From the NCBI GenBank assembly GCA_965219575.1, contig OZ244779.1, positions 2,156,769 through 2,220,768 of the forward strand: a DNA stretch of 64,000 bases, written 5' to 3'. The notes below the pieces were generated by a model. It made no database searches. It was not told the origin of the DNA and saw nothing but the letters and a program-made list of their open reading frames with translations. Both the position numbers and the translations under genes were made by a program. Source of the DNA: Candidatus Oxydemutatoraceae bacterium. GTDB lineage: Bacteria > Pseudomonadota > Gammaproteobacteria > Poriferisulfidales > Oxydemutatoraceae. Below, one piece after another: positions 4,880 through 64,000 of the stretch (its first letter is position 1; the number at the start of each line of letters is the position of its first letter).

Positions 4880-4892
4880 ATAAAGCACTACG

Positions 4893-5558: not shown

Positions 5559-5597
5559 AATTATCCTCTCATTATTAAGCTTCAAAACTCTACTATT

Positions 5598-6758: not shown

Positions 6759-6789
6759 TTTATTTCTCCTATAAGTTAAAAGGATCGGA

Positions 6790-8774: not shown

Positions 8775-9688
8775 GGTTTCTCCTTTGTTGCCGTTGCCAA
8801 TATCTTCAGTACCAGTGAACCGAAATCTATGCCGGTAGCCTTAGCCGACATCGGCACTAAACTATGACTCGTGAGACCGGGTACGGTGTTGACCTCGAGT
8901 AACCAAAATTTACCTTCGGTGTCGCGCACGGCATCGACCCGTCCCCATCCTTCGACACCTAGAGATTTGCACGCATATAAACATAAGTTTTTCAACGCCT
9001 CGAGTGCCTGCGACGGCAATCCACAGGGACAATGATAACGCGTTGCGTCGTCTTCGTATTTTGCGGCATAGTCATAGAATACGCGAGATGTCTGCAACCT
9101 TATCGGCGGCAAGATTTTGTCTTCCAATAGGGGCACCGCATATTCGTCGCCCGTCACCCAAGCCTCTGCAAACAGTGTTTTTGAAACTTGCCGGGCGGCG
9201 GATAGTGCCTTGTCGAAATCGTCCCGATTTTCTACTTTAGAAACGCCTATACTCGAACCTTCGCATACCGGCTTTAGCGCAAAGGGTAGACCGATTTGCG
9301 CAACGATAGCTTCGATATCCGAAGGCGTGTCAACGACGACAAAAGGTGGTGTAGGCAATTTCTGCGATGCCCAAATTCGCTTGGTGGCAATTTTGTTCAT
9401 AGACAATGCCGAGGCGAGTACGCCGCTACCGGTGTACGGTATATCGAGCATTTCGAGCATACCCTGCAAAGTGCCGTCCTCTCCGCCTCGCCCGTGTATT
9501 GCAATAAAGGCATGATCATAACAACCGATCGACAAAGGCGATACGGTTTTCGGTCTGAGGTCATGGGCGATTGCGTCTACTTCCGATTCTCGCAATGCGG
9601 CAACCACCGCATTGCCGGTATCCAGAGAGATCGTTCTCTCCGACGACCATCCACCCATAAACACTCCGACTTTCCCGAACTCAGGCAC
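8771..9688 (-). CDS. ddlB: D-alanine--D-alanine ligase
   Basis: GGWSSERTISL, HGRGGEDGTLQG, EGSSIGV, LEVNTVPG. GTG start at 9688 overlaps the murB end. Confidence 0.95.
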   Translation of the reverse strand: MPEFGKVGVFMGGWSSERTISLDTGNAVVAALRESEVDAIAHDLRPKTVSPLSIGCYDHAFIAIHGRGGEDGTLQGMLEMLDIPYTGSGVLASALSMNKIATKRIWASQKLPTPPFVVVDTPSDIEAIVAQIGLPFALKPVCEGSSIGVSKVENRDDFDKALSAARQVSKTLFAEAWVTGDEYAVPLLEDKILPPIRLQTSRVFYDYAAKYEDDATRYHCPCGLPSQALEALKNLCLYACKSLGVEGWGRVDAVRDTEGKFWLLEVNTVPGLTSHSLVPMSAKATGIDFGSLVLKILATATKEKP

Positions 9689-46270: not shown

Positions 46271-46295
46271 AGGGGCAGATTATATCTCTGCCCCT
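46271..46295 (-). terminator. Hairpin directly after the giant gene (terminator or REP-like)
   Basis: AGGGGCAGA-N7-TCTGCCCCT, 9 bp after the stop; weak U-tract. Confidence 0.5.
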
Positions 46296-46304
46296 ATTCT
46301 ACGA

Positions 46305-49300
46305 TTATTGCAGAGGCCCTTCGAGGAATACCTTGATACGCAGACGAATGCCGGCACTTCCACGCTCAACGGCTATGGTATAGGTTTCACTATCATCGCC
46401 GTTTTCTGCGGTAACTACTATAGTTATTGTCGTAGTCTCGCCTTCAGCTAATGGAATATCGTCATCTAGGTTCGCTTCTCCCTCGTCTACACGAACTTCT
46501 ATGGTTGCATTACTATCGCTCAATACAGCCGATACCGTTGTCGCATCTATATCGTTATCGACCATCACATTGTAGTTAAAGGTGCCGCTGTCAAAGGCAA
46601 ACGGAATGTCTCTTAACGACAGACTGCTCAATGTCGCAATGTTGTTCCCCTCTCGTGTAATCGCTATGACATATGTCTGCGATGCGATGCCGTTTTCTGC
46701 TATCACTTTAACCGCAATCTCGGTATCGCCTACGCGTAATCCAATATCGTCATCTAGGTTCTCTACCAAATCTCCTTCGTCTACACGAACTTCTATGGTT
46801 GCATCACTATCGGTCAACACAGCAGATACCGTTGTCGCATCTATATCGTTAGCAACGGTCACATCGTAGTTAAAGTCACCACTGTCAAAGGCAAGCGGAA
46901 TGTCTCTTAACGACAAACTGTTTAATGTCGCAACATCGCTCGCTTCTCGTGTAATCGCTATGACATATGTCTGCGATGCGATGCCGTCTTCTGCTATCAC
47001 TTTAACCGCAATCTCGGTATCGCCTACGGGTAATCCAATATCGGCATCTAGGTTTTCTACCAAATCTCCTTCGTCTACACGAACTTCTATGGTTGCATCA
47101 CTATCGGTCAACACAGCAGATACCGTTGTCGCATCTATATCGTTAGCAACGGTCACATCGTAGTTAAAGTCACTACTGTCAAAGGCAAGCGGAATGTCTC
47201 TTAACGACAAACTGTCTAATGTCGCAACATCGTTCGCTTCCCGTGTAATCGCTATGACATACGTCTGCGATGCGATGTTGTTTGCTGCTATCACTTTAAC
47301 CGCAATCTCGGTATCGCCTACGGGTAATCCAATATCGGCATCTAGGCTATCTACCAAATCTCCTTCGTCTATACGAACTTCTATGGTTGCATTATCATCG
47401 GTCAACACAGCAGATACCGTTGTCGCATCTATATCGTTAGCAACGGTCACATCGTAGTTAAGCTGAGCACTTATAAACTCAAACGGAATGTCTCTTAACG
47501 ACAAACTGCTCAATGTCGCATCTGCCCCCGGTAATGCCTCGCGTCTTACAGTTATCCTATAAGTTTCCATTGTCTCACCATCTTCGGCAGTCACTAAAAT
47601 CTCAATTCTATTGCTACCTACTCCTAATGCAACTCTGCCATTTTCCACCGGTGAAGCGTTAGCTGTAATGCTTGTGACACTTGCATTAGGATCACTTAGC
47701 ATAGTTGTCACCGTTGTCGCATCTATATCGTTATCGACCATCACATTGTAGTCAAAATCATTACTGTCAAAGGCAAGCGGAATGTCTCTTAACGATAAAC
47801 TGCTCAATGTCGCAACATCGTTTCCTTCTCGTGTAATCGCTATGACATACGTCTGCGATGCGATGCCGTCTTCTGCTATCACTTTAACCGCAATCTCGGT
47901 ATCGCCTACGGGTAATTCAATATCGGCATCTAGGTTCTCTACCAAATCTCCTTCGTCTACACGAACTTCTATGGTTGCATCACTATCGGTCAACACAGCA
48001 GATACCGTTGTCGCATCTATATCGTTAGCAACGGTCACATCGTAGTTAAAGTCACCACTATCAAAGGCAAGCGGAATGTCTCTTAACGATAAACTGCTCA
48101 ATGTCGCAACATCGCTCGCTTCCCGTGTAATCGCTATGACATACGTCTGCGATGCGATGCCGTCTTCTGCTATCACTTTAACCGCAATCTCGGTATCGCC
48201 TACGGGTAATTCAATATCGGCATCTAGGTTCTCTACCAAATCTCCTTCGTCTACACGAACTTCTATGGTTGCATCACTATCGGTCAATACAGCAGATACC
48301 GTTGTCGCATCTATATCGTTAGCAACGGTCACATCGTAGTTAAAGTCACCACTGTCAAAGGCAAGCGGAATATCTCTTAACGACAGACTGTTTAATGTCG
48401 CAACATCGTTCGCTTCCCGTGTAATCGCTATGACATACGTCTGCGATGCGATGCCGTCTTCTGCTATCACTTTAACCGCAATCTCGGTATCGCCTACGGG
48501 TAATCCAATATCGGCATCTAGGTTCTCTACCAAATCTCCTTCGTCTACACGAACTTCTATGGTTGCATCACTATCGGTCAACACAGCAGATACCGTTGTC
48601 GCATCTATATCGTTAGCAACGGTCACATCGTAGTTAAAGTCACCACTGTCAAAGGCAAGCGGAATGTCTCTTAACGACAGACTGTTTAATGTCGCAACAT
48701 CGCTCGCTTCTCGTGTAATCGCTATGACATACGTCTGCGATGCGATGCCGTTTGCTGCTATCACTTTAACCGCAATCTCGGTATCGCCTACGGGTAATTC
48801 AATATCGGCATCTAGGTTCTCTACCAAATCTCCTTCGTCTACACGAACTTCTATGGTTGCCTCATCATCGGTCAACACAGCAGATACCGTTGTCGCATCT
48901 ATATCGTTAGCAACGGTCACATCGTAGTTAAAGTCACCACTGTCAAAGGCAAGCGGAATGTCTCTTAACGATAAACTGCTCAATGTCGCAACATCGCTCG
49001 CTTCCCGTGTAATCGCTATGACATATGTCTGCGATGCGATGCCGTCTTCTGCTATCACTTTAACCGCAATCTCGGTATCGCCTACGGGTAATCCAATATC
49101 GGCATCTAGGTTCTCTACCAAATCTCCTTCGTCTACACGAACTTCTATGGTTGCATTATCATCGGTCAACACAGCAGATACCGTTGTCGCATCTATATCG
49201 TTAGCAACGGTCACATCGTAGTTAAGCTGAGCACTTATAAACTCAAACGGAATGTCTCTTAACGACAAACTGCTCAATGTCGCATCTGCCCCCGGTAATG

Positions 49301-52300
49301 CCTCGCGTCTTACAGTTATCCTATAAGTTTCCATTGTCTCACCATCTTCGGCAGTCACTAAAATCTCAATTCTATTGCTACCTACTCCTAATGCAACTCT
49401 GCCATTTTCCACCGGTGAACCGTTAGCTGTAATGCTTGTGACACTTGCATTAGGATCACTTAGCATAGTTGTCACCGTTGTCGCATCTATATCGTTATCG
49501 ACCATCACATTGTAGTCAAAATCATTACTGTCAAAGGCAAGCGGAATGTCTCTTAACGATAAACTGCTCAATGTCGCAACATCGTTTCCTTCTCGTGTAA
49601 TCGCTATGACATACGTCTGCGATGCGATGCCGTCTTCTGCTATCACTTTAACCGCAATCTCGGTATCGCCTACGGGTAATTCAATATCGGCATCTAGGTT
49701 CTCTACCAAATCTCCTTCGTCTACACGAACTTCTATGGTTGCATCACTATCGGTCAACACAGCAGATACCGTTGTCGCATCTATATCGTTAGCAACGGTC
49801 ACATCGTAGTTAAAGTCACCACTATCAAAGGCAAGCGGAATGTCTCTTAACGATAAACTGCTCAATGTCGCAACATCGCTCGCTTCCCGTGTAATCGCTA
49901 TGACATACGTCTGCGATGCGATGCCGTTTTCTGCTATCACTTTAACCGCAATCTCGGTATCGCCTACGGGTAATTCAATATCGGCATCTAGGTTCTCTAC
50001 CAAATCTCCTTCGTCTACACGAACTTCTATGGTTGCATCACTATCGGTCAACACAGCAGATACCGTTGTCGCATCTATATCGTTAGCAACGGTCACATCG
50101 TAGTTAAAGTCACCACTGTCAAAGGCAAGCGGAATGTCTCTTAACGACAAACTGTTTAATGTCGCAACATCGCTCGCTTCTCGTGTAATCGCTATGACAT
50201 ATGTCTGCGATGCGATGCCGTCTTCTGCTGTCACTTTAACCGCAATCTCGGTATCGCCTACGGGTAATTCAATATCGGCATCTAGGTTCTCTACCAAATC
50301 TCCTTCGTCTACACGAACTTCTATGGTTGCATCACTATCGGTCAACACAGCAGATACCGTTGTCGCATCTATATCGTTAGCAACGGTCACATCGTAGTTA
50401 AAGTCACCACTGTCAAAGGCAAGCGGAATGTCTCTTAACGACAAACTGTTTAATGTCGCAACATCGCTCGCTTCTCGTGTAATCGCTATGACATATGTCT
50501 GCGATGCGATGCCGTCTTCTGCTATCACTTTAACCGCAATCTCGGTATCGCCTACGGGTAATCCAATATCGGCATCTAGGTTTTCTACCAAATCTCCTTC
50601 GTCTACACGAACTTCTATGGTTGCATCACTATCGGTCAACACAGCAGATACCGTTGTCGCATCTATATCGTTAGCAACGGTCACATCGTAGTTAAAGTCA
50701 CCACTGTCAAAGGCAAGCGGAATGTCTCTTAACGATAAACTGCTCAATGTCGCAACATCGTTCGCTTCCCGTGTAATCGCTATGTTATACGTCTGCGATG
50801 CGATGCCGTCTTCTGCTATCACTTTAACCGCAATCTCGGTATCGCCTACGGGTAATCCAATATCGGCATCTAGGTTCTCTACCAAATCTCCTTCGTCTAC
50901 ACGAACTTCTATGGTTGCATCACTATCGGTCAACACAGCAGATACCGTTGTCGCATCTATATCGTTAGCAACGGTCACATCGTAGTTAAAGTCACCACTG
51001 TCAAAGGCAAGCGGAATATCTCTTAACGACAAACTGTCTAATGTCGCAACATCGCTCGCTTCCCGTGTAATCGCTATGACATACGTCTGCGATGCGATGT
51101 TGTTTGCTGCTATCACTTTAACCGCAATCTCGGTATCGCCTACGGGTAATCCAATATCGGCATCTAGGCTATCTACCAAATCTCCTTCGTCTACACGAAC
51201 TTCTATGGTTGCATTATCATCGGTCAACACAGCAGATACCGTTGTCGCATCTATATCGTTAGCAACGGTCACATCGTAGTTAAGCTGAGCACTTATAAAC
51301 TCAAACGGAATGTCTCTTAACGACAAACTGCTCAATGTCGCATCTGCCCCCGGTAATGCCTCGCGTCTTACAGTTATCCTATAAGTTTCCATTGTCTCAC
51401 CATCTTCGGCAGTCACTAAAATCTCAATTCTATTGCTACCTACTCCTAATGCAACTCTGCCATTTTCCACCGGTGAACCGTTAGCTGTAATGCTTGTGAC
51501 ACTTGCATTAGGATCACTTAGCATAGTTGTCACCGTTGTCGCATCTATATCGTTATCGACCATCACATTGTAGTCAAAATCATTACTGTCAAAGGCAAGC
51601 GGAATGTCTCTTAACGATAAACTGCTCAATGTCGCAACATCGTTTCCTTCTCGTGTAATCGCTATGACATACGTCTGCGATGCGATGCCGTTTTCTGCTA
51701 TCACTTTAACCGCAATCTCGGTATCGCCTACGGGTAATTCAATATCGGCATCTAGGTTCTCTACCAAATCTCCTTCGTCTACACGAACTTCTATGGTTGC
51801 ATCACTATCGGTCAACACAGCAGATACCGTTGTCGCATCTATATCGTTAGCAACGGTCACATCGTAGTTAAAGTCACCACTGTCAAAGGCAAGCGGAATG
51901 TCTCTTAACGATAAACTGCTCAATGTCGCAACATCGCTCGCTTCCCGTGTAATCGCTATGACATACGTCTGCGATGCGATGCCGTCTTCTGCTATCACTT
52001 TAACCGCAATCTCGGTATCGCCTACGGGTAATTCAATATCGGCATCTAGGTTCTCTACCAAATCTCCTTCGTCTACACGAACTTCTATGGTTGCATCACT
52101 ATCGGTCAACACAGCAGATACCGTTGTCGCATCTATATCGTTAGCAACGGTCACATCGTAGTTAAAGTCACCACTGTCAAAGGCAAGCGGAATGTCTCTT
52201 AACGACAAACTGTTTAATGTCGCAACATCGCTCGCTTCTCGTGTAATCGCTATGACATATGTCTGCGATGCGATGCCGTCTTCTGCTATCACTTTAACCG

Positions 52301-55300
52301 CAATCTCGGTATCGCCTACGGGTAATCCAATATCGGCATCTAGGTTTTCTACCAAATCTCCTTCGTCTACACGAACTTCTATGGTTGCATCACTATCGGT
52401 CAACACAGCAGATACCGTTGTCGCATCTATATCGTTAGCAACGGTCACATCGTAGTTAAAGTCACCACTGTCAAAGGCAAGCGGAATGTCTCTTAACGAC
52501 AAACTGTTTAATGTCGCAACATCGCTCGCTTCTCGTGTAATCGCTATGACATATGTCTGCGATGCGATGCCGTCTTCTGCTATCACTTTAACCGCAATCT
52601 CGGTATCGCCTACGGGTAATCCAATATCGGCATCTAGGTTCTCTACCAAATCTCCTTCGTCTACACGAACTTCTATGGTTGCATCACTATCGGTCAACAC
52701 AGCAGATACCGTTGTCGCATCTATATCGTTAGCAACGGTCACATCGTAGTTAAAGTCACCACTGTCAAAGGCAAGCGGAATGTCTCTTAACGATAAACTG
52801 CTCAATGTCGCAACATCGTTCGCTTCCCGTGTAATCGCTATGTTATACGTCTGCGATGCGATGCCGTCTTCTGCTATCACTTTAACCGCAATCTCGGTAT
52901 CGCCTACGGGTAATCCAATATCGGCATCTAGGTTCTCTACCAAATCTCCTTCGTCTACACGAACTTCTATGGTTGCATTATCATCGGTCAACACAGCAGA
53001 TACCGTTGTCGCATCTATATCGTTAGCAACGGTCACATCGTAGTTAAAGTCACCACTGTCAAAGGCAAGCGGAATATCTCTTAACGACAAACTGTCTAAT
53101 GTCGCAACATCGTTCGCTTCCCGTGTAATCGCTATGACATACGTCTGCGATGCGATGTTGTTTGCTGCTATCACTTTAACCGCAATCTCGGTATCGCCTA
53201 CGGGTAATCCAATATCGGCATCTAGGCTATCTACCAAATCTCCTTCGTCTACACGAACTTCTATGGTTGCATTATCATCGGTCAACACAGCAGATACCGT
53301 TGTCGCATCTATATCGTTAGCAACGGTCACATCGTAGTTAAGCTGAGCACTTATAAACTCAAACGGAATGTCTCTTAACGACAAACTGCTCAATGTCGCA
53401 TCTGCCCCCGGTAATGCCTCGCGTCTTACAGTTATCCTATAAGTTTCCATTGTCTCACCATCTTCGGCAGTCACTAAAATCTCAATTCTATTGCTACCTA
53501 CTCCTAATGCAACTCTGCCATTTTCCACCGGTGAACCGTTAGCTGTAATGCTTGTGACACTTGCATTAGGATCACTTAGCATAGTTGTCACCGTTGTCGC
53601 ATCTATATCGTTATCGACCATCACATTGTAGTCAAAATCATTACTGTCAAAGGCAAGCGGAATGTCTCTTAACGATAAACTGCTCAATGTCGCAACATCG
53701 TTTCCTTCTCGTGTAATCGCTATGACATACGTCTGCGATGCGATGCCGTCTTCTGCTATCACTTTAACCGCAATCTCGGTATCGCCTACGGGTAATTCAA
53801 TATCGGCATCTAGGTTCTCTACCAAATCTCCTTCGTCTACACGAACTTCTATGGTTGCATCACTATCGGTCAACACAGCAGATACCGTTGTCGCATCTAT
53901 ATCGTTAGCAACGGTCACATCGTAGTTAAAGTCACCACTGTCAAAGGCAAGCGGAATGTCTCTTAACGACAAACTGTTTAATGTCGCAACATCGCTCGCT
54001 TCTCGTGTAATCGCTATGACATATGTCTGCGATGCGATGCCGTCTTCTGCTATCACTTTAACCGCAATCTCGGTATCGCCTACGGGTAATTCAATATCGG
54101 CATCTAGGTTCTCTACCAAATCTCCTTCGTCTACACGAACTTCTATGGTTGCATCACTATCGGTCAACACAGCAGATACCGTTGTCGCATCTATATCGTT
54201 AGCAACGGTCACATCGTAGTTAAAGTCACCACTGTCAAAGGCAAGCGGAATGTCTCTTAACGACAAACTGTTTAATGTCGCAACATCGCTCGCTTCTCGT
54301 GTAATCGCTATGACATATGTCTGCGATGCGATGCCGTCTTCTGCTATCACTTTAACCGCAATCTCGGTATCGCCTACGGGTAATCCAATATCGGCATCTA
54401 GGTTCTCTACCAAATCTCCTTCGTCTACACGAACTTCTATGGTTGCATCACTATCGGTCAACACAGCAGATACCGTTGTCGCATCTATATCGTTAGCAAC
54501 GGTCACATCGTAGTTAAAGTCACCACTGTCAAAGGCAAGCGGAATGTCTCTTAACGATAAACTGCTCAATGTCGCAACATCGTTCGCTTCCCGTGTAATC
54601 GCTATGTTATACGTCTGCGATGCGATGCCGTCTTCTGCTATCACTTTAACCGCAATCTCGGTATCGCCTACGGGTAATCCAATATCGGCATCTAGGTTCT
54701 CTACCAAATCTCCTTCGTCTACACGAACTTCTATGGTTGCATCACTATCGGTCAACACAGCAGATACCGTTGTCGCATCTATATCGTTAGCAACGGTCAC
54801 ATCGTAGTTAAAGTCACCACTGTCAAAGGCAAGCGGAATGTCTCTTAACGACAAACTGTTTAATGTCGCAACATCGCTCGCTTCTCGTGTAATCGCTATG
54901 ACATATGTCTGCGATGCGATGCCGTCTTCTGCTATCACTTTAACCGCAATCTCGGTATCGCCTACGGGTAATCCAATATCGGCATCTAGGTTTTCTACCA
55001 AATCTCCTTCGTCTACACGAACTTCTATGGTTGCATCACTATCGGTCAACACAGCAGATACCGTTGTCGCATCTATATCGTTAGCAACGGTCACATCGTA
55101 GTTAAAGTCACTACTGTCAAAGGCAAGCGGAATGTCTCTTAACGACAAACTGTCTAATGTCGCAACATCGTTCGCTTCCCGTGTAATCGCTATGACATAC
55201 GTCTGCGATGCGATGTTGTTTGCTGCTATCACTTTAACCGCAATCTCGGTATCGCCTACGGGTAATCCAATATCGGCATCTAGGCTATCTACCAAATCTC

Positions 55301-58300
55301 CTTCGTCTATACGAACTTCTATGGTTGCATTATCATCGGTCAACACAGCAGATACCGTTGTCGCATCTATATCGTTAGCAACGGTCACATCGTAGTTAAG
55401 CTGAGCACTTATAAACTCAAACGGAATGTCTCTTAACGACAAACTGCTCAATGTCGCATCTGCCCCCGGTAATGCCTCGCGTCTTACAGTTATCCTATAA
55501 GTTTCCATTGTCTCACCATCTTCGGCAGTCACTAAAATCTCAATTCTATTGCTACCTACTCCTAATGCAACTCTGCCATTTTCCACCAGTGAACCGTTAG
55601 CTGTAATGCTTGTGACACTTGCATTAGAATCACTTAACGTAGTTGTCACCGTTGTCGCATCTATATCGTTATCAACCATCACATTGTAGTTAAAGTCACC
55701 ACTGTCAAAGGTAAACGGAATGTCTCTTAACGATAAACTGCTCAATGTCGCAACAGTACCTACGCGGTCTAAAAATATGTTATAAGTCCTAAACTCTATT
55801 CCATTTGCTGCAATCACTCGGATTGAAATAACTTCAGGAAATGATGTCACTGCCACATCAGTTGACATACCACTTTCTATTTCCCTATTGAAATCATCAA
55901 AATCAACGCCTAATCTGATTGTTGCACCGTCCGCATCTTGCGCTGTTGCGACTATTGTCACCGTTGTTTGGTCTGAATCGCTTGCTATTACACCATTGTA
56001 ATTTGTGACTTCCGGATCAAAGCCTTGTATATCGGTGCCACTGAAACCCTGAAATAAGTTTATAGAGTTCCCGTTGATGTCCGATAGCATCAAGCTACTT
56101 AATGTAGTAATATCACTCAACTCCGGTGCTTCGGCTCGCGCAACGGCTACGGTATACCCTTGTGTCGTGACGCGATCCTCTGCGGTCACTATAATAGCAA
56201 TTGTGGTAGTCGTACCTGCACCCCCTAGCACCACATCGGTCGTCGGGCTGTTATTTACCGTTACAGTCGCACCTATATCGGTTGCCGTTGTCGCTACCGT
56301 CACTTGTGTCACATCGTTTGCCACAGCCGCTGTGTATGTTATGACATCTGAGTCAAATTCCCGGTTCAGGTCTATAGCAACACCGTCGCTTAGCGTCAGT
56401 GCCAATGCGTCCAGTGTTGCAACACTGCTCGGCAGAAATGCACGACTATCCGGGTCTATCTCTGTGTCGGTACCTATAAGGGTGTCACTACGGTTGAAGG
56501 GTGGGTTGAGGTTTGGGGAGCTGTCAACCAATGAGTCAGAGTTTCTGGATCTATACAAAGCAAAACTATCTGTTTCTGTAACTTGTTGATTACTCAATGT
56601 CACGGTATATGTCAGTGTGGTTTTCATGCCATCGCTACCTGGAATCGTAGATGCCTCAATAACTCCAACTCCGCTTATCAAAGTGGCAATGTCATTTTCA
56701 CCATCTTCTTCAATGCGATATAGTTGATACGAGTTCGTGCTGTTCAAAGTAGGTACATTCTCGCTGGCTTCAACTACAAAAACTACATCGTAGATACGCG
56801 GGTCGTCGGATTGAGGTGTCGCCATCGGGGCGGTAGCTATCGTGATTATCGGGTTGTCCATATCTACGCGTGATAAAAATATCTGATAATTATTTATGGT
56901 ACCACCCCGTTCAACTGTAATAATAAGAAGGACATCAGCAGGTCCCTCAGGTGTAAAAAATGTAATTGGCACATCAGTTGGGACACCACTTTGTATTCCT
57001 ATGGGATTAGCAGTGCCAGCTTGTATGCTAATTGTTAAACCGGCAGCATCTTCCACTGTTGCGGTTACTTGCACCGTCGTTTGTTCTAAATTGGTTACTA
57101 TTTGTGCATTATAGAAGTTTGTTGCCGGGTCAAATTGTACTTCTGCGTCAGAAAGATCTAACAAGTCTATAGAGTTCCCCTCAGTATCCGATAGCACCAA
57201 ATCACTTAGTACAATAGGCGGTACCTGTCGGGCAACAGCTACGGTATACGCTTGTGTCGTGTTGCCATCCTCGGCAGTTACTATAATGGCAATTGTAGTG
57301 GTCGTGCCGACAGCCCCCAGCATTACATTAGTCGTGGCACTCCTTGCCGCCGCACTGTTATTTATCATGACAGTCGCACCTATATCGGTTGCCGTTGTCG
57401 CCACCGTCACTTGCGCCATATCGTGTGCTACGATTGCCGTGTATGTTGTGACGGTTGGGTTAAATCTGCGATCAAGGTTTATAGCAGTTCCGTCACTTTG
57501 CGTTAGCTGCAAGCCGCGCAATGTTCTATCGTTGCTCAGTGGCGGTCGGACGGCAGGACTGCTTGAATCTATCTCTGCGTTGGCACCTATGGTATTGCCA
57601 TTATTGTCAACGGGCAGATTGCCGGAGTCATCCAGCAACGAAGTCGCTAGATTTCGGTGCAAACGGAAATTCGTCGTATCTCTCACATCCATGATATCCT
57701 GAAATAGCACGGTGTATGTGAGTGTCGTTTGACGGTTGTCACTCCTCTGCACAATGTCAGGCATGAGATTTGATATGGGCGTTGTGTCTCGGTATAGCAG
57801 ATAGGATCCTGGTTGGTCCAAACCTTCTACATTTTCATTTGCGGCTCGTACATCAAAAGTTACCTCATAGATAAGTGGGTTTTCGGAAGATCGGGCTGCC
57901 GTCGGGGTGCCGAATATTCTGATTATCGGGCTTACTCGATCTCTGGTTGCCGTCCGGTCGGCGGCGGCGGTGATGATTGTCGGCGGATTACCGTCCCTAT
58001 CTAATAAGGTGCCTGGTTCGAAATCCAATCTCCAGCCTGTTATGTTTCGCACATCATCGTATTGGTTTGAGCCAAAAGTGGCTTCGTAGGTGATTGTTGC
58101 ACTCATGTCATCATCGGAGTTGACTCGGAGGTCGAAAGTAACAGGTGAGACACCTGAACCTTGTTGAGTCACACTATAAGATGCATCATTTGCTATAGTC
58201 GGGACAGCTTCGGTAGAGGTAGTCTCAAATGTCACAATATATCGTAATCCCTGATTAGCCGGCATAACGGTTGCCGATTGCACGCCGATTTGCGCGCCCT

Positions 58301-60077
58301 CTGTATTTCTCAGTGCTCGTGCATCAGCACTTATGATGCCACCATCCGCTATTCGATTGCCCATGTCATCAATCGGCTGGTTAATTGCCGCGTCTTGAAG
58401 ACTTGTCGCACCATTACGAGCTACCGTGAAGTACTCTGCATTTGCATTACCACTGACCGGGACATTATAGCGAAGTATTACCTCTCTTCCCGCATCTACT
58501 TCAGTGATGGTCACACTCTCACCATCAGTGTTGCTAGCAACGCCGCCGATTACTCTCCGTAATTGATACGAGTTACCATTACCCAAAGTCGGCACATTCT
58601 CAGAGGCAGTTATCCTAAAGTAAATGACATAATTTGTACCGTCAGGAACAAGATTGCCCGACATCGCGTTGCCCCCACTATCCACCCATTGTGCCGTAAT
58701 CGTCGGGCTCTGTGCGTCTTGTATCGGCACTCCGCCTCTCAGTGCAACTTGATCTTCTTCCACCGGTCTTTGATCTTCGCCGCGCACGCCGTTAAGCCTA
58801 AACGACATGGTCAGTGTCGTGTTCTCCATGACTCTTTCTGCAACAACAACCGTAACCGTAGTTGGCTCGGTGTCTGCATGGTCTACCGATAGAATTTGGG
58901 CAGTGTTTGCTTCAAAATCACTTAACTCATTCCCCGTCAGACAAGTTGCATAAGCATCTTCATTACTCAAGCAGATATTGCCCTCTATGGTAGTGGGATC
59001 GAGAGGTTTATCAAATGTTATAGTCCATCGCGATTCACGACTGGAATTATCACGAGAATCCCGTACTATTCGGGTTGCTTGCGGAGCATCTGCATCATAA
59101 TATAGCGTTGCAATGAAATTGCCTGCGGCTAGTGCCATGCTGTTGCTCATAATAGATGCGGCAGAATCCGAGAATCTCAATTCAGAACCGAAAGGAGGCA
59201 CTATATCAAACTCAATAACAGCGTTCTGCTCACCGGCATTGTGAGAGACACTCGTGATTGTGACAGTATCGGTACTAATCGCAAAATCGCCGGCCTGTAA
59301 TGCCGTATTTACCGCCTGAGAAAATTGGATGTTTATCCCTCTGCCGTTGCTGAACAATGCATACCTTTGAGCGTAGGTTCTGCCATCCGATCTAAAGCCG
59401 AGTAGGTCATTGCCGGCTAGCGGGAATATGTTGCGCCTATCGGATATTGTAGTGCTCATTTCATTTGTATCGTTATAGACATATACCATATTTGATAAGA
59501 TATCGGTGCCACTGATTGCAATACCGGCATCCTCATCGGTTTCCTGAATAGCACAGCTTAACCTAACAAAAATTGCATTATTAAGCCCATCAATAGACAC
59601 TAGTCGGTTCGCCGCTATAGTCGTGGTTGTGATATGTGCGGTGATAGTGAAGCTGTTGTCGGTTGTATCTCTCAGTCTATATTTATAATCCATAAGTCCG
59701 TTGAATGGAGAAGCCTCCGGAGTAGAATCTTGATGACATCGACCGCTTTCTATAACTTTTTCTCCGAATGCATCGGTATTGTATGTCAATCTAGCCGACG
59801 CAAATGCCAATCTGGTTGCAACTTTATTTGTGTTGCCTCCGATTATATTCATTTGAATGTTATAAGTGGCAGTGTTGTTAACGCCCTCGCTTTCTAGTGC
59901 CACCATACCAAGCCTATATTCCAATATGCCATCCTCGCTCGGTCGGCAACTTTCACATTGCCCGGCTATCAAATTACCAACCGAAGGCATGCCGAAAAAT
60001 CGGCTTTGGACGAAGGAGGTTTGAGCAAAGGCACTCCCGACCAATAGCAGTAGTAGTATCGTGAAAATATTTCTCAT
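46305..60077 (-). CDS. Giant secreted acidic adhesin-like protein (~4590 aa) with cadherin-like beta-sandwich repeats and C-terminal KVFLEGPLQ peptide
   Basis: Uninterrupted ORF. Sec signal MRNIFTILLLLLVGSAFA|Q with AGGGA RBS. Repeats fit the cadherin-like pattern ATLxxL...F...Y.V.V...VTAEDG...TY.I.V.R. Ends RGSAGIRLRIKVFLEGPLQ. Confidence 0.9.
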   Translation of the reverse strand: MRNIFTILLLLLVGSAFAQTSFVQSRFFGMPSVGNLIAGQCESCRPSEDGILEYRLGMVALESEGVNNTATYNIQMNIIGGNTNKVATRLAFASARLTYNTDAFGEKVIESGRCHQDSTPEASPFNGLMDYKYRLRDTTDNSFTITAHITTTTIAANRLVSIDGLNNAIFVRLSCAIQETDEDAGIAISGTDILSNMVYVYNDTNEMSTTISDRRNIFPLAGNDLLGFRSDGRTYAQRYALFSNGRGINIQFSQAVNTALQAGDFAISTDTVTITSVSHNAGEQNAVIEFDIVPPFGSELRFSDSAASIMSNSMALAAGNFIATLYYDADAPQATRIVRDSRDNSSRESRWTITFDKPLDPTTIEGNICLSNEDAYATCLTGNELSDFEANTAQILSVDHADTEPTTVTVVVAERVMENTTLTMSFRLNGVRGEDQRPVEEDQVALRGGVPIQDAQSPTITAQWVDSGGNAMSGNLVPDGTNYVIYFRITASENVPTLGNGNSYQLRRVIGGVASNTDGESVTITEVDAGREVILRYNVPVSGNANAEYFTVARNGATSLQDAAINQPIDDMGNRIADGGIISADARALRNTEGAQIGVQSATVMPANQGLRYIVTFETTSTEAVPTIANDASYSVTQQGSGVSPVTFDLRVNSDDDMSATITYEATFGSNQYDDVRNITGWRLDFEPGTLLDRDGNPPTIITAAADRTATRDRVSPIIRIFGTPTAARSSENPLIYEVTFDVRAANENVEGLDQPGSYLLYRDTTPISNLMPDIVQRSDNRQTTLTYTVLFQDIMDVRDTTNFRLHRNLATSLLDDSGNLPVDNNGNTIGANAEIDSSSPAVRPPLSNDRTLRGLQLTQSDGTAINLDRRFNPTVTTYTAIVAHDMAQVTVATTATDIGATVMINNSAAARSATTNVMLGAVGTTTTIAIIVTAEDGNTTQAYTVAVARQVPPIVLSDLVLSDTEGNSIDLLDLSDAEVQFDPATNFYNAQIVTNLEQTTVQVTATVEDAAGLTISIQAGTANPIGIQSGVPTDVPITFFTPEGPADVLLIITVERGGTINNYQIFLSRVDMDNPIITIATAPMATPQSDDPRIYDVVFVVEASENVPTLNSTNSYQLYRIEEDGENDIATLISGVGVIEASTIPGSDGMKTTLTYTVTLSNQQVTETDSFALYRSRNSDSLVDSSPNLNPPFNRSDTLIGTDTEIDPDSRAFLPSSVATLDALALTLSDGVAIDLNREFDSDVITYTAAVANDVTQVTVATTATDIGATVTVNNSPTTDVVLGGAGTTTTIAIIVTAEDRVTTQGYTVAVARAEAPELSDITTLSSLMLSDINGNSINLFQGFSGTDIQGFDPEVTNYNGVIASDSDQTTVTIVATAQDADGATIRLGVDFDDFNREIESGMSTDVAVTSFPEVISIRVIAANGIEFRTYNIFLDRVGTVATLSSLSLRDIPFTFDSGDFNYNVMVDNDIDATTVTTTLSDSNASVTSITANGSLVENGRVALGVGSNRIEILVTAEDGETMETYRITVRREALPGADATLSSLSLRDIPFEFISAQLNYDVTVANDIDATTVSAVLTDDNATIEVRIDEGDLVDSLDADIGLPVGDTEIAVKVIAANNIASQTYVIAITREANDVATLDSLSLRDIPLAFDSSDFNYDVTVANDIDATTVSAVLTDSDATIEVRVDEGDLVENLDADIGLPVGDTEIAVKVIAEDGIASQTYVIAITREASDVATLNSLSLRDIPLAFDSGDFNYDVTVANDIDATTVSAVLTDSDATIEVRVDEGDLVENLDADIGLPVGDTEIAVKVIAEDGIASQTYNIAITREANDVATLSSLSLRDIPLAFDSGDFNYDVTVANDIDATTVSAVLTDSDATIEVRVDEGDLVENLDADIGLPVGDTEIAVKVIAEDGIASQTYVIAITREASDVATLNSLSLRDIPLAFDSGDFNYDVTVANDIDATTVSAVLTDSDATIEVRVDEGDLVENLDADIELPVGDTEIAVKVIAEDGIASQTYVIAITREASDVATLNSLSLRDIPLAFDSGDFNYDVTVANDIDATTVSAVLTDSDATIEVRVDEGDLVENLDADIELPVGDTEIAVKVIAEDGIASQTYVIAITREGNDVATLSSLSLRDIPLAFDSNDFDYNVMVDNDIDATTVTTMLSDPNASVTSITANGSPVENGRVALGVGSNRIEILVTAEDGETMETYRITVRREALPGADATLSSLSLRDIPFEFISAQLNYDVTVANDIDATTVSAVLTDDNATIEVRVDEGDLVDSLDADIGLPVGDTEIAVKVIAANNIASQTYVIAITREANDVATLDSLSLRDIPLAFDSGDFNYDVTVANDIDATTVSAVLTDDNATIEVRVDEGDLVENLDADIGLPVGDTEIAVKVIAEDGIASQTYNIAITREANDVATLSSLSLRDIPLAFDSGDFNYDVTVANDIDATTVSAVLTDSDATIEVRVDEGDLVENLDADIGLPVGDTEIAVKVIAEDGIASQTYVIAITREASDVATLNSLSLRDIPLAFDSGDFNYDVTVANDIDATTVSAVLTDSDATIEVRVDEGDLVENLDADIGLPVGDTEIAVKVIAEDGIASQTYVIAITREASDVATLNSLSLRDIPLAFDSGDFNYDVTVANDIDATTVSAVLTDSDATIEVRVDEGDLVENLDADIELPVGDTEIAVKVIAEDGIASQTYVIAITREASDVATLSSLSLRDIPLAFDSGDFNYDVTVANDIDATTVSAVLTDSDATIEVRVDEGDLVENLDADIELPVGDTEIAVKVIAENGIASQTYVIAITREGNDVATLSSLSLRDIPLAFDSNDFDYNVMVDNDIDATTVTTMLSDPNASVTSITANGSPVENGRVALGVGSNRIEILVTAEDGETMETYRITVRREALPGADATLSSLSLRDIPFEFISAQLNYDVTVANDIDATTVSAVLTDDNATIEVRVDEGDLVDSLDADIGLPVGDTEIAVKVIAANNIASQTYVIAITREASDVATLDSLSLRDIPLAFDSGDFNYDVTVANDIDATTVSAVLTDSDATIEVRVDEGDLVENLDADIGLPVGDTEIAVKVIAEDGIASQTYNIAITREANDVATLSSLSLRDIPLAFDSGDFNYDVTVANDIDATTVSAVLTDSDATIEVRVDEGDLVENLDADIGLPVGDTEIAVKVIAEDGIASQTYVIAITREASDVATLNSLSLRDIPLAFDSGDFNYDVTVANDIDATTVSAVLTDSDATIEVRVDEGDLVENLDADIELPVGDTEIAVKVTAEDGIASQTYVIAITREASDVATLNSLSLRDIPLAFDSGDFNYDVTVANDIDATTVSAVLTDSDATIEVRVDEGDLVENLDADIELPVGDTEIAVKVIAENGIASQTYVIAITREASDVATLSSLSLRDIPLAFDSGDFNYDVTVANDIDATTVSAVLTDSDATIEVRVDEGDLVENLDADIELPVGDTEIAVKVIAEDGIASQTYVIAITREGNDVATLSSLSLRDIPLAFDSNDFDYNVMVDNDIDATTVTTMLSDPNASVTSITANGSPVENGRVALGVGSNRIEILVTAEDGETMETYRITVRREALPGADATLSSLSLRDIPFEFISAQLNYDVTVANDIDATTVSAVLTDDNATIEVRVDEGDLVENLDADIGLPVGDTEIAVKVIAEDGIASQTYVIAITREASDVATLSSLSLRDIPLAFDSGDFNYDVTVANDIDATTVSAVLTDDEATIEVRVDEGDLVENLDADIELPVGDTEIAVKVIAANGIASQTYVIAITREASDVATLNSLSLRDIPLAFDSGDFNYDVTVANDIDATTVSAVLTDSDATIEVRVDEGDLVENLDADIGLPVGDTEIAVKVIAEDGIASQTYVIAITREANDVATLNSLSLRDIPLAFDSGDFNYDVTVANDIDATTVSAVLTDSDATIEVRVDEGDLVENLDADIELPVGDTEIAVKVIAEDGIASQTYVIAITREASDVATLSSLSLRDIPLAFDSGDFNYDVTVANDIDATTVSAVLTDSDATIEVRVDEGDLVENLDADIELPVGDTEIAVKVIAEDGIASQTYVIAITREGNDVATLSSLSLRDIPLAFDSNDFDYNVMVDNDIDATTVTTMLSDPNASVTSITANASPVENGRVALGVGSNRIEILVTAEDGETMETYRITVRREALPGADATLSSLSLRDIPFEFISAQLNYDVTVANDIDATTVSAVLTDDNATIEVRIDEGDLVDSLDADIGLPVGDTEIAVKVIAANNIASQTYVIAITREANDVATLDSLSLRDIPLAFDSSDFNYDVTVANDIDATTVSAVLTDSDATIEVRVDEGDLVENLDADIGLPVGDTEIAVKVIAEDGIASQTYVIAITREASDVATLNSLSLRDIPLAFDSGDFNYDVTVANDIDATTVSAVLTDSDATIEVRVDEGDLVENLDDDIGLRVGDTEIAVKVIAENGIASQTYVIAITREGNNIATLSSLSLRDIPFAFDSGTFNYNVMVDNDIDATTVSAVLSDSNATIEVRVDEGEANLDDDIPLAEGETTTITIVVTAENGDDSETYTIAVERGSAGIRLRIKVFLEGPLQ
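46360..55754 (-). repeat. Tandem array of 32 x 294-bp (98-aa) coding repeats with higher-order blocks of 7,7,7,6,5 units
   Basis: The SLRDIP motif recurs every 294 bp from ~55720 to ~46606. Divergent B units (NASVTSITANG) start at ~55720, 53662, 51604, 49546 and 47782. Confidence 0.93.
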
Positions 60078-60106
60078 TGAATTTCCCTGTTTTGTAATCA
60101 TTGTTC

Positions 60107-60916
60107 CTAAGGTATTTGCGTTGTTCGGCCCAAGTTTTCACTCAGTCGAGACGATTCAAAGTCACCATCTCCTACTGTGCCGTCAAAATTAATATCCGAG
60201 CGCAACGACGGCGGACTGCCCGAAGATATATCATTATGTATCTGTAGATAATCGGCAGCATTGATATTCTCGTCACGATTCACATCACCCACATACATCG
60301 CTGCCTCTTCGTCCACGCCCTTCAAACCAAGAGACCCCCCTCTGGCTTGCGTTACTCCAGTGGTGAAATCGTATGTATATCGTGTCGCACCATTAGTGAT
60401 TGTTCTTGTCATGCTTGTATTAGAAATAACGTCCAGATGATTTATATGACGCACGACCACATATAAATCTTTACCCGACACTTCGGTATCATCGGCAAAA
60501 TTGAACTGTACGAGAGGGCAATTATCATTATCGTTTTCATTAAATTGTTGGGGGCATGTTCCCGTGTATCGGCTAGCGTCTACAACATAACCGTTTTGTA
60601 ATAGCCAAGCAGGCTGGCGGTCGATTACCGTATCCGTTGTTGCGGCTTCTACGCCGGCACCTTCTGGTACGGCACGCAACTCAATCAATACCCAATCGGA
60701 AACGCCGGCGGGTATAGTGCTATTGCTAACGGTGCAGTCTTCATCGATACCGAATGCTTCATCAAGATAGCCACCATCGCTACAGTAAGGATCGGTGGAC
60801 TGAATATTAGTACTATTATTTTTTAACGGCGGGGTTTGTGCAATACTAGTACCGATTACCGATATTGACAGTAATAATACAAGCAAAATATTTATTAAGG
60901 CTTCTTTAAGTTCCAT
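60107..60916 (-). CDS. Secreted protein with DWVLIELR/RHINHL beta-sandwich and dockerin-like Ca-binding loops (putative partner of the giant protein)
   Basis: Signal peptide MELKEALINILLVLLLSISVIGTSIA|Q with AAGGGA RBS. Paired loops GDVNRDENINAAD and SDINFDGTVGDGD. Ends 29 bp before the giant gene start. Confidence 0.85.
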   Translation of the reverse strand: MELKEALINILLVLLLSISVIGTSIAQTPPLKNNSTNIQSTDPYCSDGGYLDEAFGIDEDCTVSNSTIPAGVSDWVLIELRAVPEGAGVEAATTDTVIDRQPAWLLQNGYVVDASRYTGTCPQQFNENDNDNCPLVQFNFADDTEVSGKDLYVVVRHINHLDVISNTSMTRTITNGATRYTYDFTTGVTQARGGSLGLKGVDEEAAMYVGDVNRDENINAADYLQIHNDISSGSPPSLRSDINFDGTVGDGDFESSRLSENLGRTTQIP

Positions 60917-61206
60917 ATTTTGTTTCCCTTTATATTTATCATATACCAAAGGTAAATAACTTATAGCATAATTCCTTGGTTTATTCTTTGGTTTCATTTA
61001 TTATTTCATAGTTTTTTCATTATAAACTTAAGATGTTTGTTTCCGAACCACATGAATTATATGCGATTCTCCATATCCAGTCAATACACCGGACAAACCT
61101 ATAATATCATTATATCCGTCCTATATCTCATTGGATAGCTTGATTTCGAAAGCACAAACTCAATCTATGCCTAGTCTTTACATCGCACAACTCTCCCAAG
61201 TCTAAT

Positions 61207-61884: not shown

Positions 61885-62634
61885 TTACTCGGACTCCGAA
61901 AGAAGTTCTCTATAGAGTGTATCGGAGTCTCCTTCTCCTTCGTTATTTTCAATCAAATTCTGCCGGCGTTTCAGATAAAAATCTCTGAGCGCAACATAGT
62001 AGTCGGGAGACATGCCTCTGACAATATCTTCCAGAGGTATAAAGCCGGCACGGGTATTGATGCCCTCGGTTATCAGCAAGCCATCACGCCAGTCATCGTC
62101 TCCTACATAAACCAACGGGTTCATAAAAATATCCACGAAACGAGACGGAAGATCGCGAGCGGTACTAGGACCCAAAATCGGAATCACTACATAAGGCCCG
62201 GATCCTACGCCCCATACAGCCAACGTTTGCCCGAAATCCTCGTTGTGCTTTTCAAGCCCGTCTACCTTAGACGCAACATCGAATAAACCGGCGAGTCCAA
62301 CCGTGGAATTTATTAGTACTCGTAACAAATCACCACCGCCCGCACCGACATTGCCTTGCAAAAAATTATTTGCGGCAATCGGAATGTCCTGAATGTTTGC
62401 AAAAAAACTGGTTATGCGGGCACGCACAAAAGAGGGGAGCACTTTAGTATAAGCGGTACTAACAGGCTTAAACACAGCCTTGTCCACGCTTTCGTTGAAC
62501 GCAAAAACCGAACGGTTATAACCTTCCCATGGGTCGGCGGTCTCCGATGCGTCACTAAGACTATTCGATTGTGCCGCACAACCGCTCAACAGAACGACAA
62601 GGCATAAATACAGAAAGTGTTTTGTTTTACTCAT
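61885..62634 (-). CDS. mlaA: MlaA/VacJ lipoprotein
   Basis: Lipobox LLSGC, DPWEGYNR, INSTVGLAG, EDFGQTL, GPYVVIPILGPST. Confidence 0.93.
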   Translation of the reverse strand: MSKTKHFLYLCLVVLLSGCAAQSNSLSDASETADPWEGYNRSVFAFNESVDKAVFKPVSTAYTKVLPSFVRARITSFFANIQDIPIAANNFLQGNVGAGGGDLLRVLINSTVGLAGLFDVASKVDGLEKHNEDFGQTLAVWGVGSGPYVVIPILGPSTARDLPSRFVDIFMNPLVYVGDDDWRDGLLITEGINTRAGFIPLEDIVRGMSPDYYVALRDFYLKRRQNLIENNEGEGDSDTLYRELLSESE

Positions 62635-62702
62635 TACGGTATCGCTAGAAGGGTTATATATTAAATGCTATGTTGCTAATGTCAAGCTATAGTTTTACAT
62701 GT

Positions 62703-63090
62703 GGGACTGTTGAAACTAAAACTGCCACTCGTGACGTGACCTTGTGCAGACACACTGTGGCTGTTGAAAAAGTATCGTCAGCGTGCAACCGTAACCGTTT
62801 GCACCATGAATTTATAATAACCATCAAGCCGTAGGGGCAGTATAAAGCCGCCGATTGAACCGGTAGATCAATCGGCAACTTTGATGTCTGCCCTTAAGTA
62901 CCGTTCTGCACGGCTGGAACCGCTTGCGCCGTATGGTTTTGGTTTCCATAAATCGGGTGGATGAATGTATAAATCGTGCCGACCAACGCGCTACGGGCGG
63001 ACATGCTAGTCCGCCCCTACAGGTGGTTTGTAAATATTCACGGCGCAAGCGGTTGCAGTTTTGCAAAAACAGTATTTTTTCAACAGCCCC
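62703..63090. repeat. Mosaic intergenic repeat, copy 5 (largest)
   Basis: End motifs GGGACTGTTGAAA (62703), GGCTGTTGAAAAAGTAT (62759) and TTTTTCAACAGCCCC (ending 63090). Contains a GCCGATTGA..TCAATCGGC hairpin, a core flanked by AACCGCTTGCGCCGT/ACGGCGCAAGCGGTT, and a REP-like hairpin. Confidence 0.85.
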
Positions 63091-63105
63091 ACACCACGAC
63101 CGCCC

Positions 63106-64000
63106 CTAAGGCTTGATCGGACCTGAAGTGCGTAGGCGTAGTGCGTTGAGTTTAATAAAACCTTCTGCGTCGCGCGGATCGTACGCACCTCGGTCGTCTT
63201 CAAAACTCGCAACCGCACTGTTGAACAGACTATTCGGTGCCTGTCTGCCGGTGATTTCTACATTCGCTTTGTAGAGTCTTATCCGCACCTTGCCGGTTAC
63301 ATTGGACTGGCTATAGTCAATCAACCGTTGCAATGCCCGGCGTTCTTCGCTCCACCAGTAACCGTTATAGATGAGCCGAGCGTAACGAGGCATCAGTTCA
63401 TCTTTTAAGTGTGCCAGTTCTCTATCCAAGGTGAGCGATTCTATTGCCCTATGTGCTTTCAACAATAGCGTGCCGCCGGGCGTTTCATAACAGCCTCTGG
63501 ATTTCATACCCACATAGCGATTTTCAACCAGGTCGGTTCTGCCTATACCATGCTTGCCTGCCAATTCGTTTAGACGCATCAGCATCTTTGCCGGAGCCAG
63601 TGTCTCACCGTCTATTGCACACGGGTCGCCTTTTTCAAAATCCAAAGTGATGGTCTCCGGTGTATCGGCGGCGGTCTCCGGAGAGGCGGTTCTTTGCCAC
63701 ATCGTTTGCCGAGGCTCGCACCACGGGTCTTCCAATATACCACCCTCGTAAGAGATATGAAGCAAGTTCGCATCCATAGAATAAGGGGGTTCACCACTCG
63801 CATCTTTGTCTACGACAATGCCGTGTTGCATGGCATAATCGAGCAATGCGGTGCGTGAATTAAGTTGCCATTGCCGCCAAGGCGCAATAATCCGAATATC
63901 GGGGTTGAGTGCATAGGCAGCCAACTCAAAGCGTACTTGGTCGTTGCCCTTGCCGGTCGCACCATGCGCAATCGCGTCGGCACCAACCGCGTTCGCAGCT
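63106..64000 (-). CDS. argG: Argininosuccinate synthase (C-terminal part; start lies beyond the window)
   Basis: [15 protein letters not shown] near the window end, [35 protein letters not shown]. Confidence 0.96.

Follow-up and report, generated by a model that had tools for sequence, protein, structure and literature searches.

A candidate natural peptide tag and its strand-less acceptor, two parts of one C-terminal domain, in a gammaproteobacterial family

Introduction

Cellulosomal scaffoldins carry an X-module-dockerin pair at their C-terminus and dock through the cohesin-dockerin interaction. Chaperone-usher pili are built by donor-strand complementation and the type V pili of Bacteroidia by strand exchange, while SpyTag/SpyCatcher and the related split CnaB domains are engineered pairs that join covalently. 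C-terminal sorting signals are known from the LPXTG/sortase, PEP-CTERM/exosortase and GlyGly-CTERM/rhombosortase systems and from the C-terminal domain of the type IX secretion system (T9SS), and in the autoproteolytic GAIN and SEA domains a cleaved strand stays bound in the fold. Here we describe a 64,000-nucleotide stretch of DNA (hereafter the window) from a Candidatus Oxydemutatoraceae bacterium (GenBank assembly GCA_965219575.1, contig OZ244779.1, positions 2,156,769 to 2,220,768), in which the gene of a giant secreted adhesin ends in a 15-residue peptide, the tag, and the gene ahead of it encodes a small secreted protein, the acceptor. Judged by sequence, the tag is a homologue of the first beta-strand of a C-terminal domain, and the acceptor is that domain without this strand. 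The same tag closes dozens of other proteins of the genome, and it may dock into the acceptor after export.

This arrangement shares features with each of the systems above. As in cohesin-dockerin systems, the C-terminus of secreted proteins consists of a beta-module and, behind it, a duplicated calcium-loop dockerin segment; unlike there, the genome encodes no Cohesin-family protein, the module is genetically split from its cargo, and sequence searches of Pfam, NCBIfam and PDB found no relative of the beta-body. As in the pili, an incomplete beta-fold would be completed by the strand of another polypeptide. Pilins, however, lack their own last strand and polymerise together, whereas here 45 unrelated cargos would donate and it is a small protein that lacks its first strand. 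In SpyTag/SpyCatcher, too, a short peptide tag is matched by a second protein made of what is left of the same domain, but the candidate pair described here is natural, genome-wide and without a conserved reactive lysine.

Like the LPXTG, PEP-CTERM, GlyGly-CTERM and T9SS signals, the tag is a short conserved C-terminal ending on many secreted proteins of one genome, and a giant paralogous to the adhesin with a GlyGly-CTERM-like tail in place of the tag fits a 'choice of anchor' logic. Unlike the sortase-type signals, it has no transmembrane helix or basic tail and no NCBIfam match, and its apparent partner is not a processing enzyme but the rest of its own ancestral domain. As in GAIN and SEA domains, a strand of one chain would be part of a fold formed by another; those domains, however, are made as one chain and cut later, whereas the parts here come from separate genes, each with a signal peptide. 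As far as we can tell, there is no description of a natural domain divided between a short tag on dozens to hundreds of unrelated secreted proteins and one remainder protein, and neither the tag nor the domain motifs occurred in the papers searched (supplements were outside the search).

Results

A conserved C-terminal ending recurs throughout the genome

The adhesin gene lies on the minus strand (46305..60101), and its product ends in ...GSAGIRLRIKVFLEGPLQ, directly followed by TAA. The last 15 residues, GIRLRIKVFLEGPLQ (46308..46352, minus strand), align to positions 5-20 of a profile of intact domains described below, that is, to the first strand. The genome of the window (G000; 2.37 Mb, one contig, 98.9% complete) was searched for stop-to-stop open reading frames (ORFs) that end in [KR][VIL]FL[EQ]G plus two to six residues. 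Forty-five such tagged ORFs were found, 39 of them with the ending FLEGxL[QR]. An earlier note on this DNA had treated the tag as a feature of this adhesin; it is instead genome-wide and family-wide. The back-translated KVFLEG pattern gave 37 matches in the genome and none in the reversed control, a recurrence far beyond chance. Together the tagged ORFs make up 130,398 residues, or 16.5% of the genome. The largest comprise 12,747, 13,383, 15,435, 15,560 and 16,069 amino acids (aa; e.g. G000:C1:1637777-1685986), and three of these five ORFs of more than 12,000 residues lie side by side at 1.597-1.734 Mb.

All 45 tagged tails aligned to the intact-domain profile, from positions 3-8 through 18-22. 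Among the C-termini of 1938 other ORFs, comparable scores were reached only by three more tag variants and by the acceptor's own end. Conservation spans precisely the final 15 residues, [AGV]-I-R-I-R-x-K-V-F-L-E-G-P-L-Q; the residues that precede them are unrelated. When all pairs of the 39 strict tags were compared, the last nine codons differed by 3046 synonymous versus 464 non-synonymous codon differences, whereas codons -30 to -17 of the same ORFs gave 492 synonymous versus 9505 non-synonymous. These counts show that selection is on the peptide and not on a DNA repeat. The DNA past the stop codon differs between tag copies. Many of the tagged genes of this genome have a palindrome resembling repetitive extragenic palindromes (REP), of the type AACCGCCGATTGAGCCGGTAGGTCAATCGGCGG, after the stop codon; the adhesin of the window has a plain hairpin instead.

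A crude regular expression assigned a signal-peptide-like N-terminus to 30 of the 45 tagged ORFs versus 342 of the 1938 other ORFs of at least 150 aa, and at least five of the 15 tagged ORFs that it missed show a signal peptide by eye. Five of the tagged ORFs, at just 56-125 aa, are possibly fragments. Modules recognized in the tagged cargo include Calx-beta, GLUG, Cadherin-like and cytochrome c. In ten tagged proteins that were scanned, the tag matched no Pfam or NCBIfam model. It stops three residues past the glycine and has neither a hydrophobic helix nor a basic tail. Position -9 of the tag is lysine in 37 of the 39 strict tags and arginine in the other two, and arginine also occurs there in several variant tags.

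Three proteins of the genome carry the tag motif away from the C-terminus, with a Gly/Ser linker behind it in every case, so that the motif need not be at a free C-terminus. In one protein that has a pair of FGE-sulfatase domains (G000:C1:1796419-1800540) the motif comes directly after the signal peptide, and in two leucine-rich repeat (LRR)/fn3 proteins (G000:C1:1308319-1313601 and its paralogue at 1918093-1923450) it stands at about residue 294.

The tag corresponds to the first strand of a widespread C-terminal domain

A profile of 25 homologues of the acceptor type was compared to 1.84 billion representative proteins, of which 8599 matched with E of 0.001 or less and 3000 with E of 1e-10 or less. 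Heading the list are stand-alone proteins with lengths of some 260-330 aa; the majority of the others are longer, and the match, over profile positions of about 68-271, lies at or near their C-terminus. These fused homologues contain a C-terminal domain of about 220 aa with the motif order K[VA]FLEG, DWVLxELR, RHxNHL, YDF, two D-x-N-x-D-G loops and a Q[VIL]P end. The domain is built of a beta-rich body and, behind it, two dockerin-like calcium loops, with Q-[VIL]-P as its last residues. K[VA]FLEG is found 49-52 residues ahead of DWVLxELR, and the contiguous domain that the earlier note had described for Bacteroidota is therefore real. Its intact form is indeed common in Bacteroidales, where thousands of secreted proteins from uncultured members carry it, while the organism studied here is a gammaproteobacterium.

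A second profile, of 231 positions, was made from 44 intact domains, and 288 stored proteins were aligned to it. The first strand was covered in 221 domain alignments, which bears out the expectation that homologues carry a KVFLEG strand N-terminal to DWVLxELR. The strand was absent despite upstream room in 29 proteins, all of them stand-alone and at most 340 aa long, and none of the stored proteins longer than 340 aa lacked it. These counts come from an alignment in which one more protein with upstream room was found by the motif regular expression only, five records are partial, and 83 matches span fewer than 120 profile positions. In an hmmalign alignment, positions 10-20 were empty in the stand-alone forms, save in two where the end of the signal peptide falls there. 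Mature stand-alone chains from four genera open with M-x-[TS]-x-L...[IL]P..DPYC, the segment that follows the strand in intact domains; the cut is thus precise and common to all stand-alone forms.

No Pfam or NCBIfam model matched the domain in the 7-10 intact-domain proteins scanned, and the T9SS C-terminal domain models of these databases matched neither those proteins nor the ten tagged ones. A profile search of a collection of 5.8 billion proteins, in which 8000 candidates were scored, gave at least 3369 clusters with E of 1e-10 or less. The named clusters belong mostly to metagenome-assembled genomes (MAGs) of Bacteroidales, in which the intact domain stands behind GH55, sialidase, C1, C10 and M14 peptidase, PKD, cohesin and other modules. 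In a tree of 68 domain bodies (45 random stored proteins, P0068 and above, and 23 sequences of the window's family), the Bacteroidales copies formed one clade (SH-aLRT 96) and the copies of G005, a genome of a sister genus, formed another (100). The deep branch order was left open in this tree, which gives no direction as to split versus re-fusion.

The acceptor lacks exactly this strand

The acceptor gene (60107..60997, minus strand) is an ORF of 296 aa that ends 5 bp ahead of the adhesin ORF; its homologues begin at the methionine at 60916, which gives a protein of about 269 aa. The signal peptide (residues 28-55, 60833..60916, minus strand), ending in ...SIAQ, fills the place that strand 1 has in the intact domain. 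Behind it comes the domain body without strand 1 (residues 56-236, 60290..60832, minus strand), which includes DPYC, DWVLIELR, RHINHL and YDF and aligns to profile positions 55-230 with 116 bits, and then a dockerin-like double calcium-loop module (residues 237-279, 60161..60289, minus strand; PF00404 match) with two D-x-N-x-D loops and the C-terminal end QIP. The acceptor has DWVLxELR, RHxNHL and YDF, both calcium loops and the Q-[VIL]-P ending, and these motifs do not vary among 24-25 homologues. The first strand, K[VA]FLEG, is not in the acceptor chain and is present as the C-terminal tag of the adjoining adhesin. Intact copies of the domain terminate enzymes and giants; the acceptor is a separate protein that has a signal peptide of its own. 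The earlier note had read the upstream gene in this way, and every motif that it quoted is present; a frameshift or nonsense break is excluded as the cause of the split.

The acceptor matched Dockerin_1 (PF00404) with 33 bits against a cut-off of 22.9, and with 31.2 bits in a scan of the whole genome, where it was the sole match to this family. A PDB search with the profile of 25 acceptors gave weak dockerin matches (best E 0.00058) and no relative of the beta-body by sequence. A cohesin was considered as partner of the dockerin-like module, but PF00963 matched nothing in the genome and, with E up to 10, nothing in the N-termini of four giants; the idea is kept only as a variant of low probability. 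The same genome encodes an acceptor paralogue of 289 aa that aligns to profile positions 54-225. These are its only two strand-less proteins, and it has no intact copy of the domain. The closest named relatives of the acceptor come from MAGs of 'uncultured candidatus Porisulfidus sp.', and the bacterial family is marine and probably sponge-associated.

Split and intact states of the domain among related genomes

Sixty-one genomes were compared. Acceptor-type matches (E up to 1e-5) were present in 16 of 18 relatives from the same family and in 0 of 42 others, and both tags and acceptors were confined to the family. The split and unsplit states appear among the relatives as ALTERNATIVES. In the five genomes of the window's genus, the KVFLEG-coding pattern had 10-37 matches each, with 0 in the control. 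The tag-end pattern [FY]L[EQ]G[PA]xx-stop, with 0-3 matches in the controls, was found 36 times in the window's genome and 13-17 times in the other four members of this genus (g1; G001-G004). It had 216 matches in G006 (genus g3) and, within genus g4, 26 in G017, 17 in G018, 7 in G007, 6 in G014 and 0 in G011, where neither tags nor acceptors were found.

In G006 (2.5 Mb), 216 ORFs close in the manner of ...LRLRLFLEGPLR-stop, with R as the last residue, and a single acceptor gene is present. The earlier note had suggested that one acceptor might serve several tagged proteins, and the gene counts agree with this (45 tags and two acceptors in the window's genome, 216 and one in G006). Many of the tagged genes of G006 lie in tandem arrays (e.g. 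L065:801-10201), and its locus L064 includes four 156-bp units, each closing with a tag and a stop codon, that resemble tag cassettes or decayed copies. Tags of g4 close mostly in E or Q. G010 and G013 carry three tandem acceptors each and at least one protein that ends in ...KVFLEGPYEYR. Our first tag patterns missed these PYEYR ends, so 'no tag' means none of the forms searched. A repeated LEGAYP-stop site in G012 was considered as a tag and dropped, having no hydrophobic codon ahead of it. The tag is thus kept in at least four genera, with a genus-specific end residue of Q, R, E or YEYR.

The sister-genus genome G005, of the same family, represents the unsplit state. It has 25 domain matches, all in ORFs of 687 to 17,496 aa, and neither tags nor a stand-alone form were found in it. 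Five of these copies were inspected and are complete, with the first strand ...A[YF]LQGAY...; four of them stand at the very C-terminus of a giant and one follows a signal peptide. One alignment (E = 4e-10) pairs a GLUG protein of the window's genome with the C-terminal portion of a G005 giant; it reaches as far as ...KVFLEG (residue 421 of 424) opposite ...AYLQG (195 of 448), beyond which the G005 protein continues with the rest of the domain.

Covariation links the strand to residues of the body

Mean-field direct coupling analysis (DCA) was applied to the 221 intact domains (Meff 211, 231 positions). It recovered a local hairpin at the K-D-G turn (pairs 88-100, 92-98 and 93-99) and coupled both calcium loops. 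Strand position 14, the V/A of K-[VA]-F-L-E-G, was coupled to position 92 at rank four of all pairs, and the pairs 14-170, 14-98 and 92-98 ranked 21, 25 and 27. V14 occurs with L92 and A14 with I92; the mutual information of the two positions was reached by 0 of 1000 shuffles, in which kinship is ignored. L92 is kept in all 23 aligned sequences of the family. These couplings are suggestive of a strand whose side chains pack in the domain core against residues that the acceptor retains. A coupling between positions 17 and 161 (rank 16) was considered as a salt bridge and rejected; position 161 varies in the majority of acceptors, and in G005 it is Arg or His, so this pair was not used as support.

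The adhesin gene and its surroundings

The adhesin is 4598 aa long from the first ATG, or 4590 aa from the methionine at 60077, directly ahead of the signal peptide, which is the likely start. Its first ~340 aa (59082..60101, minus strand) form a domain with conserved cysteines that is common to the giants encoded after acceptor genes in four genera. This N-domain had no Pfam match above cut-off, and a five-sequence profile of it had no PDB match at E up to 10. A sub-threshold PapD_C match at the adhesin N-terminus (E 0.11, 13 bits versus a cut-off of 22.8) was the sole hint of a chaperone-usher system, in a search that did not extend to usher genes. The adhesin has Cadherin-like beta sandwich repeats (PF12733) in 36 stretches (1512 bits). 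A tandem array of 30.6 copies of a 294-bp unit, equal to 98-aa Cadherin-like repeats, occupies 46477..55458 (minus strand; 87% matches). The copies are very alike as DNA, and in the protein the repeat subtypes follow a higher-order pattern; this suggests that the array expanded, or underwent gene conversion, recently.

A GC-rich, terminator-like hairpin (46271..46295, minus strand) is located 10 bp past the adhesin stop codon and is followed by rpsO and pnp. The adhesin frame is therefore not continued downstream, and the protein ends in the strand with nothing after it, as the earlier note had stated. On the other side of the pair lie folE, mlaA and argG, so that acceptor and adhesin form an island among housekeeping genes. 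Seven contigs of a small metatranscriptome library (X13) matched, at 100%, segments of the 5' region of the adhesin gene, of the acceptor gene (at 60111-60269 and 60737-60957) and of folE; they give neither strand nor expression level, and as DNA carry-over is possible they indicate only presence in an RNA library. Two further RNA libraries had no match to the region. Between mlaA and argG, at 62600-63127, contig depth in the DNA run X7 rises from about 54 to 4198-9133, with numerous short contigs, joints and loose ends, resembling a highly repeated short intergenic element.

Acceptor genes precede one family of giants

Wherever their surroundings were seen, twice in the window's genome and in G007, G010 and G006, acceptor genes always precede a member of one giant family. 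The second cassette of the window's genome (G000:C1:2240850-2246934) consists of the acceptor paralogue, a giant of 1485 aa and a rhombosortase (TIGR03902, 144 bits versus a cut-off of 84). The 1485-aa giant has the same N-domain as the adhesin and a GlyGly-CTERM-like tail (a glycine run, a hydrophobic helix and RRRR). Genes for a rhodanese and a T2SSE-family ATPase lie just upstream of this cassette. In G010 a giant of 3634 aa follows the three tandem acceptors, and a choice-of-anchor U domain (34 bits versus a cut-off of 32) stands directly before its GlyGly-CTERM-like tail (C1, ~692000-693135). An ORF of 650 aa in G012 (C1:652513-654463) fuses a giant-type N-domain directly to an acceptor domain with a degenerate first strand, EINVLLGGAV, and so unites two modules that are otherwise encoded by adjacent genes.

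Discussion

The sequence data show that the tag is homologous to the first strand, that tag and acceptor are exactly complementary, that among relatives the split and the intact state exclude each other, and that the tag is under selection as a peptide; covariation suggests in addition that the strand lies in the domain core. From these sequence data we cautiously favour the reading that the tag docks into the strand-less acceptor after export and completes its fold. Both partners would be exported by Sec, and the tag would insert non-covalently as the missing first strand, so that the C-terminal domain present in cis in relatives would be rebuilt in trans. One or a few adaptors would in this way supply the function of the domain in trans to all tagged proteins. 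That function may be attachment at the cell surface, in view of the C-terminal place of the domain on secreted enzymes and adhesins, the dockerin-like loops and the GlyGly-CTERM-like tail of the homologous giant. Whether the pair is, more broadly, a natural non-covalent tag-and-catcher used as a general sorting device, in a family that has split its anchoring domain into 1-5 adaptors and 6-216 tagged ends per genome by pattern count, we regard as an even call.

Several results weigh against docking. G008, G012, G015 and G009 (genera g5 and g6) have divergent acceptor-like genes and yet tags at control level with three patterns (with a looser pattern the controls were as high as the matches, which makes it uninformative). 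The co-occurrence of tag and acceptor that the earlier note proposed to test is seen in that both are found only in the family, and is not seen in these four relatives with the tag forms searched. The ratios of tags to acceptors, 45:2 in the window's genome and 216:1 in G006, would require a very abundant or recycling acceptor. The syntenic giants of the second cassette and of G010 end in GlyGly-CTERM-like tails and not in the tag, and no Cohesin (PF00963) match was found in the 98.9%-complete genome at E up to 0.01. The DCA was run with few sequences for 231 positions and with no structure as a check, and its 17-161 coupling is not preserved in the majority of acceptors. The co-occurrence counts come from genomes that are kin and do not amount to independent observations.

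The same data can be read in other ways. The tag could be a C-terminal sorting or secretion signal for another machine, such as a protease, a transpeptidase or an outer membrane translocon, that descended from the old domain, with the acceptors serving the giant/rhombosortase cassette only. The constant place of acceptor genes ahead of one giant family, the second cassette with its acceptor paralogue, GlyGly-CTERM-like giant and rhombosortase, and the G012 ORF that joins a giant-type N-domain to an acceptor domain would all fit, as would the four relatives with acceptor-like genes and no tags above control and the single acceptor beside 216 tags in G006. Such a signal would leave unexplained why the acceptor has lost exactly the tag segment and why genomes with the intact domain have neither tags nor stand-alone forms. 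No candidate machine was found, and the tag has no hydrophobic helix or basic tail of the known sortase-type signals and matches no NCBIfam or Pfam model; we consider this explanation rather unlikely, but more probable than the others below. More doubtful is a variant of docking in which the acceptor bridges giants into chains, its dockerin-like end holding the N-domain of one giant and its body taking the tag of another, to form a scaffold with the GlyGly-CTERM giant as its anchor. In favour of it, acceptor genes of four genera are found in synteny with the giant N-domain, one G012 protein unites the two, the adhesin of the window has both N-domain and tag, and the paralogous giant has the N-domain and a membrane-type tail beside a rhombosortase. 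Nothing, however, links the dockerin-like module to the N-domain, which has no Cohesin match and no PDB match at E up to 10 with its five-sequence profile, and a gene fusion speaks for joint function, not for binding.

A covalent adduct through the tag lysine, which the earlier note had raised, is very unlikely. It draws on the analogy with split beta-domains and on the lysine at -9 in 37 of 39 strict tags, but this residue is not conserved: the other two strict tags and several variant tags have arginine there instead, Arg or Leu takes those positions in the tags of G006, and among the 203 intact domains tabulated (of 221) it is lysine in 121 and Thr, Asn, Leu, Ser, Arg or Ile in the others. 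That the shared ending is no protein signal at all, and instead a translated 3'-end repeat element or the decaying remnant of cut-down domains, we find scarcely credible. REP-like palindromes past many stop codons and the five tagged ORFs of 56-125 aa, possibly fragments, could be cited for it; the excess of synonymous differences within the tag next to unrelated residues just upstream, the differing DNA past the stop codons, and the maintenance of the tag in at least four genera, each with its own end residues, contradict it.

If the tag docks into the acceptor as we favour, the pair would be an undescribed kind of protein sorting in which the signal is a piece of a fold and the receptor is the rest of that fold. 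It would serve dozens to hundreds of proteins per genome, including adhesins of 12,000 to 16,000 residues, and would give a role to an unnamed domain present in at least 3369 protein clusters, mostly of uncultured Bacteroidales. The variants ending in Q, R, E and YEYR would be natural orthogonal pairs of docking peptide and protein for engineering. Even without binding, the architecture is unusual and easily tested, with the unsplit sister genus as a natural control. For the bacteria themselves, docking would bear on how symbiont-like cells display giant adhesins and eukaryote-like proteins.

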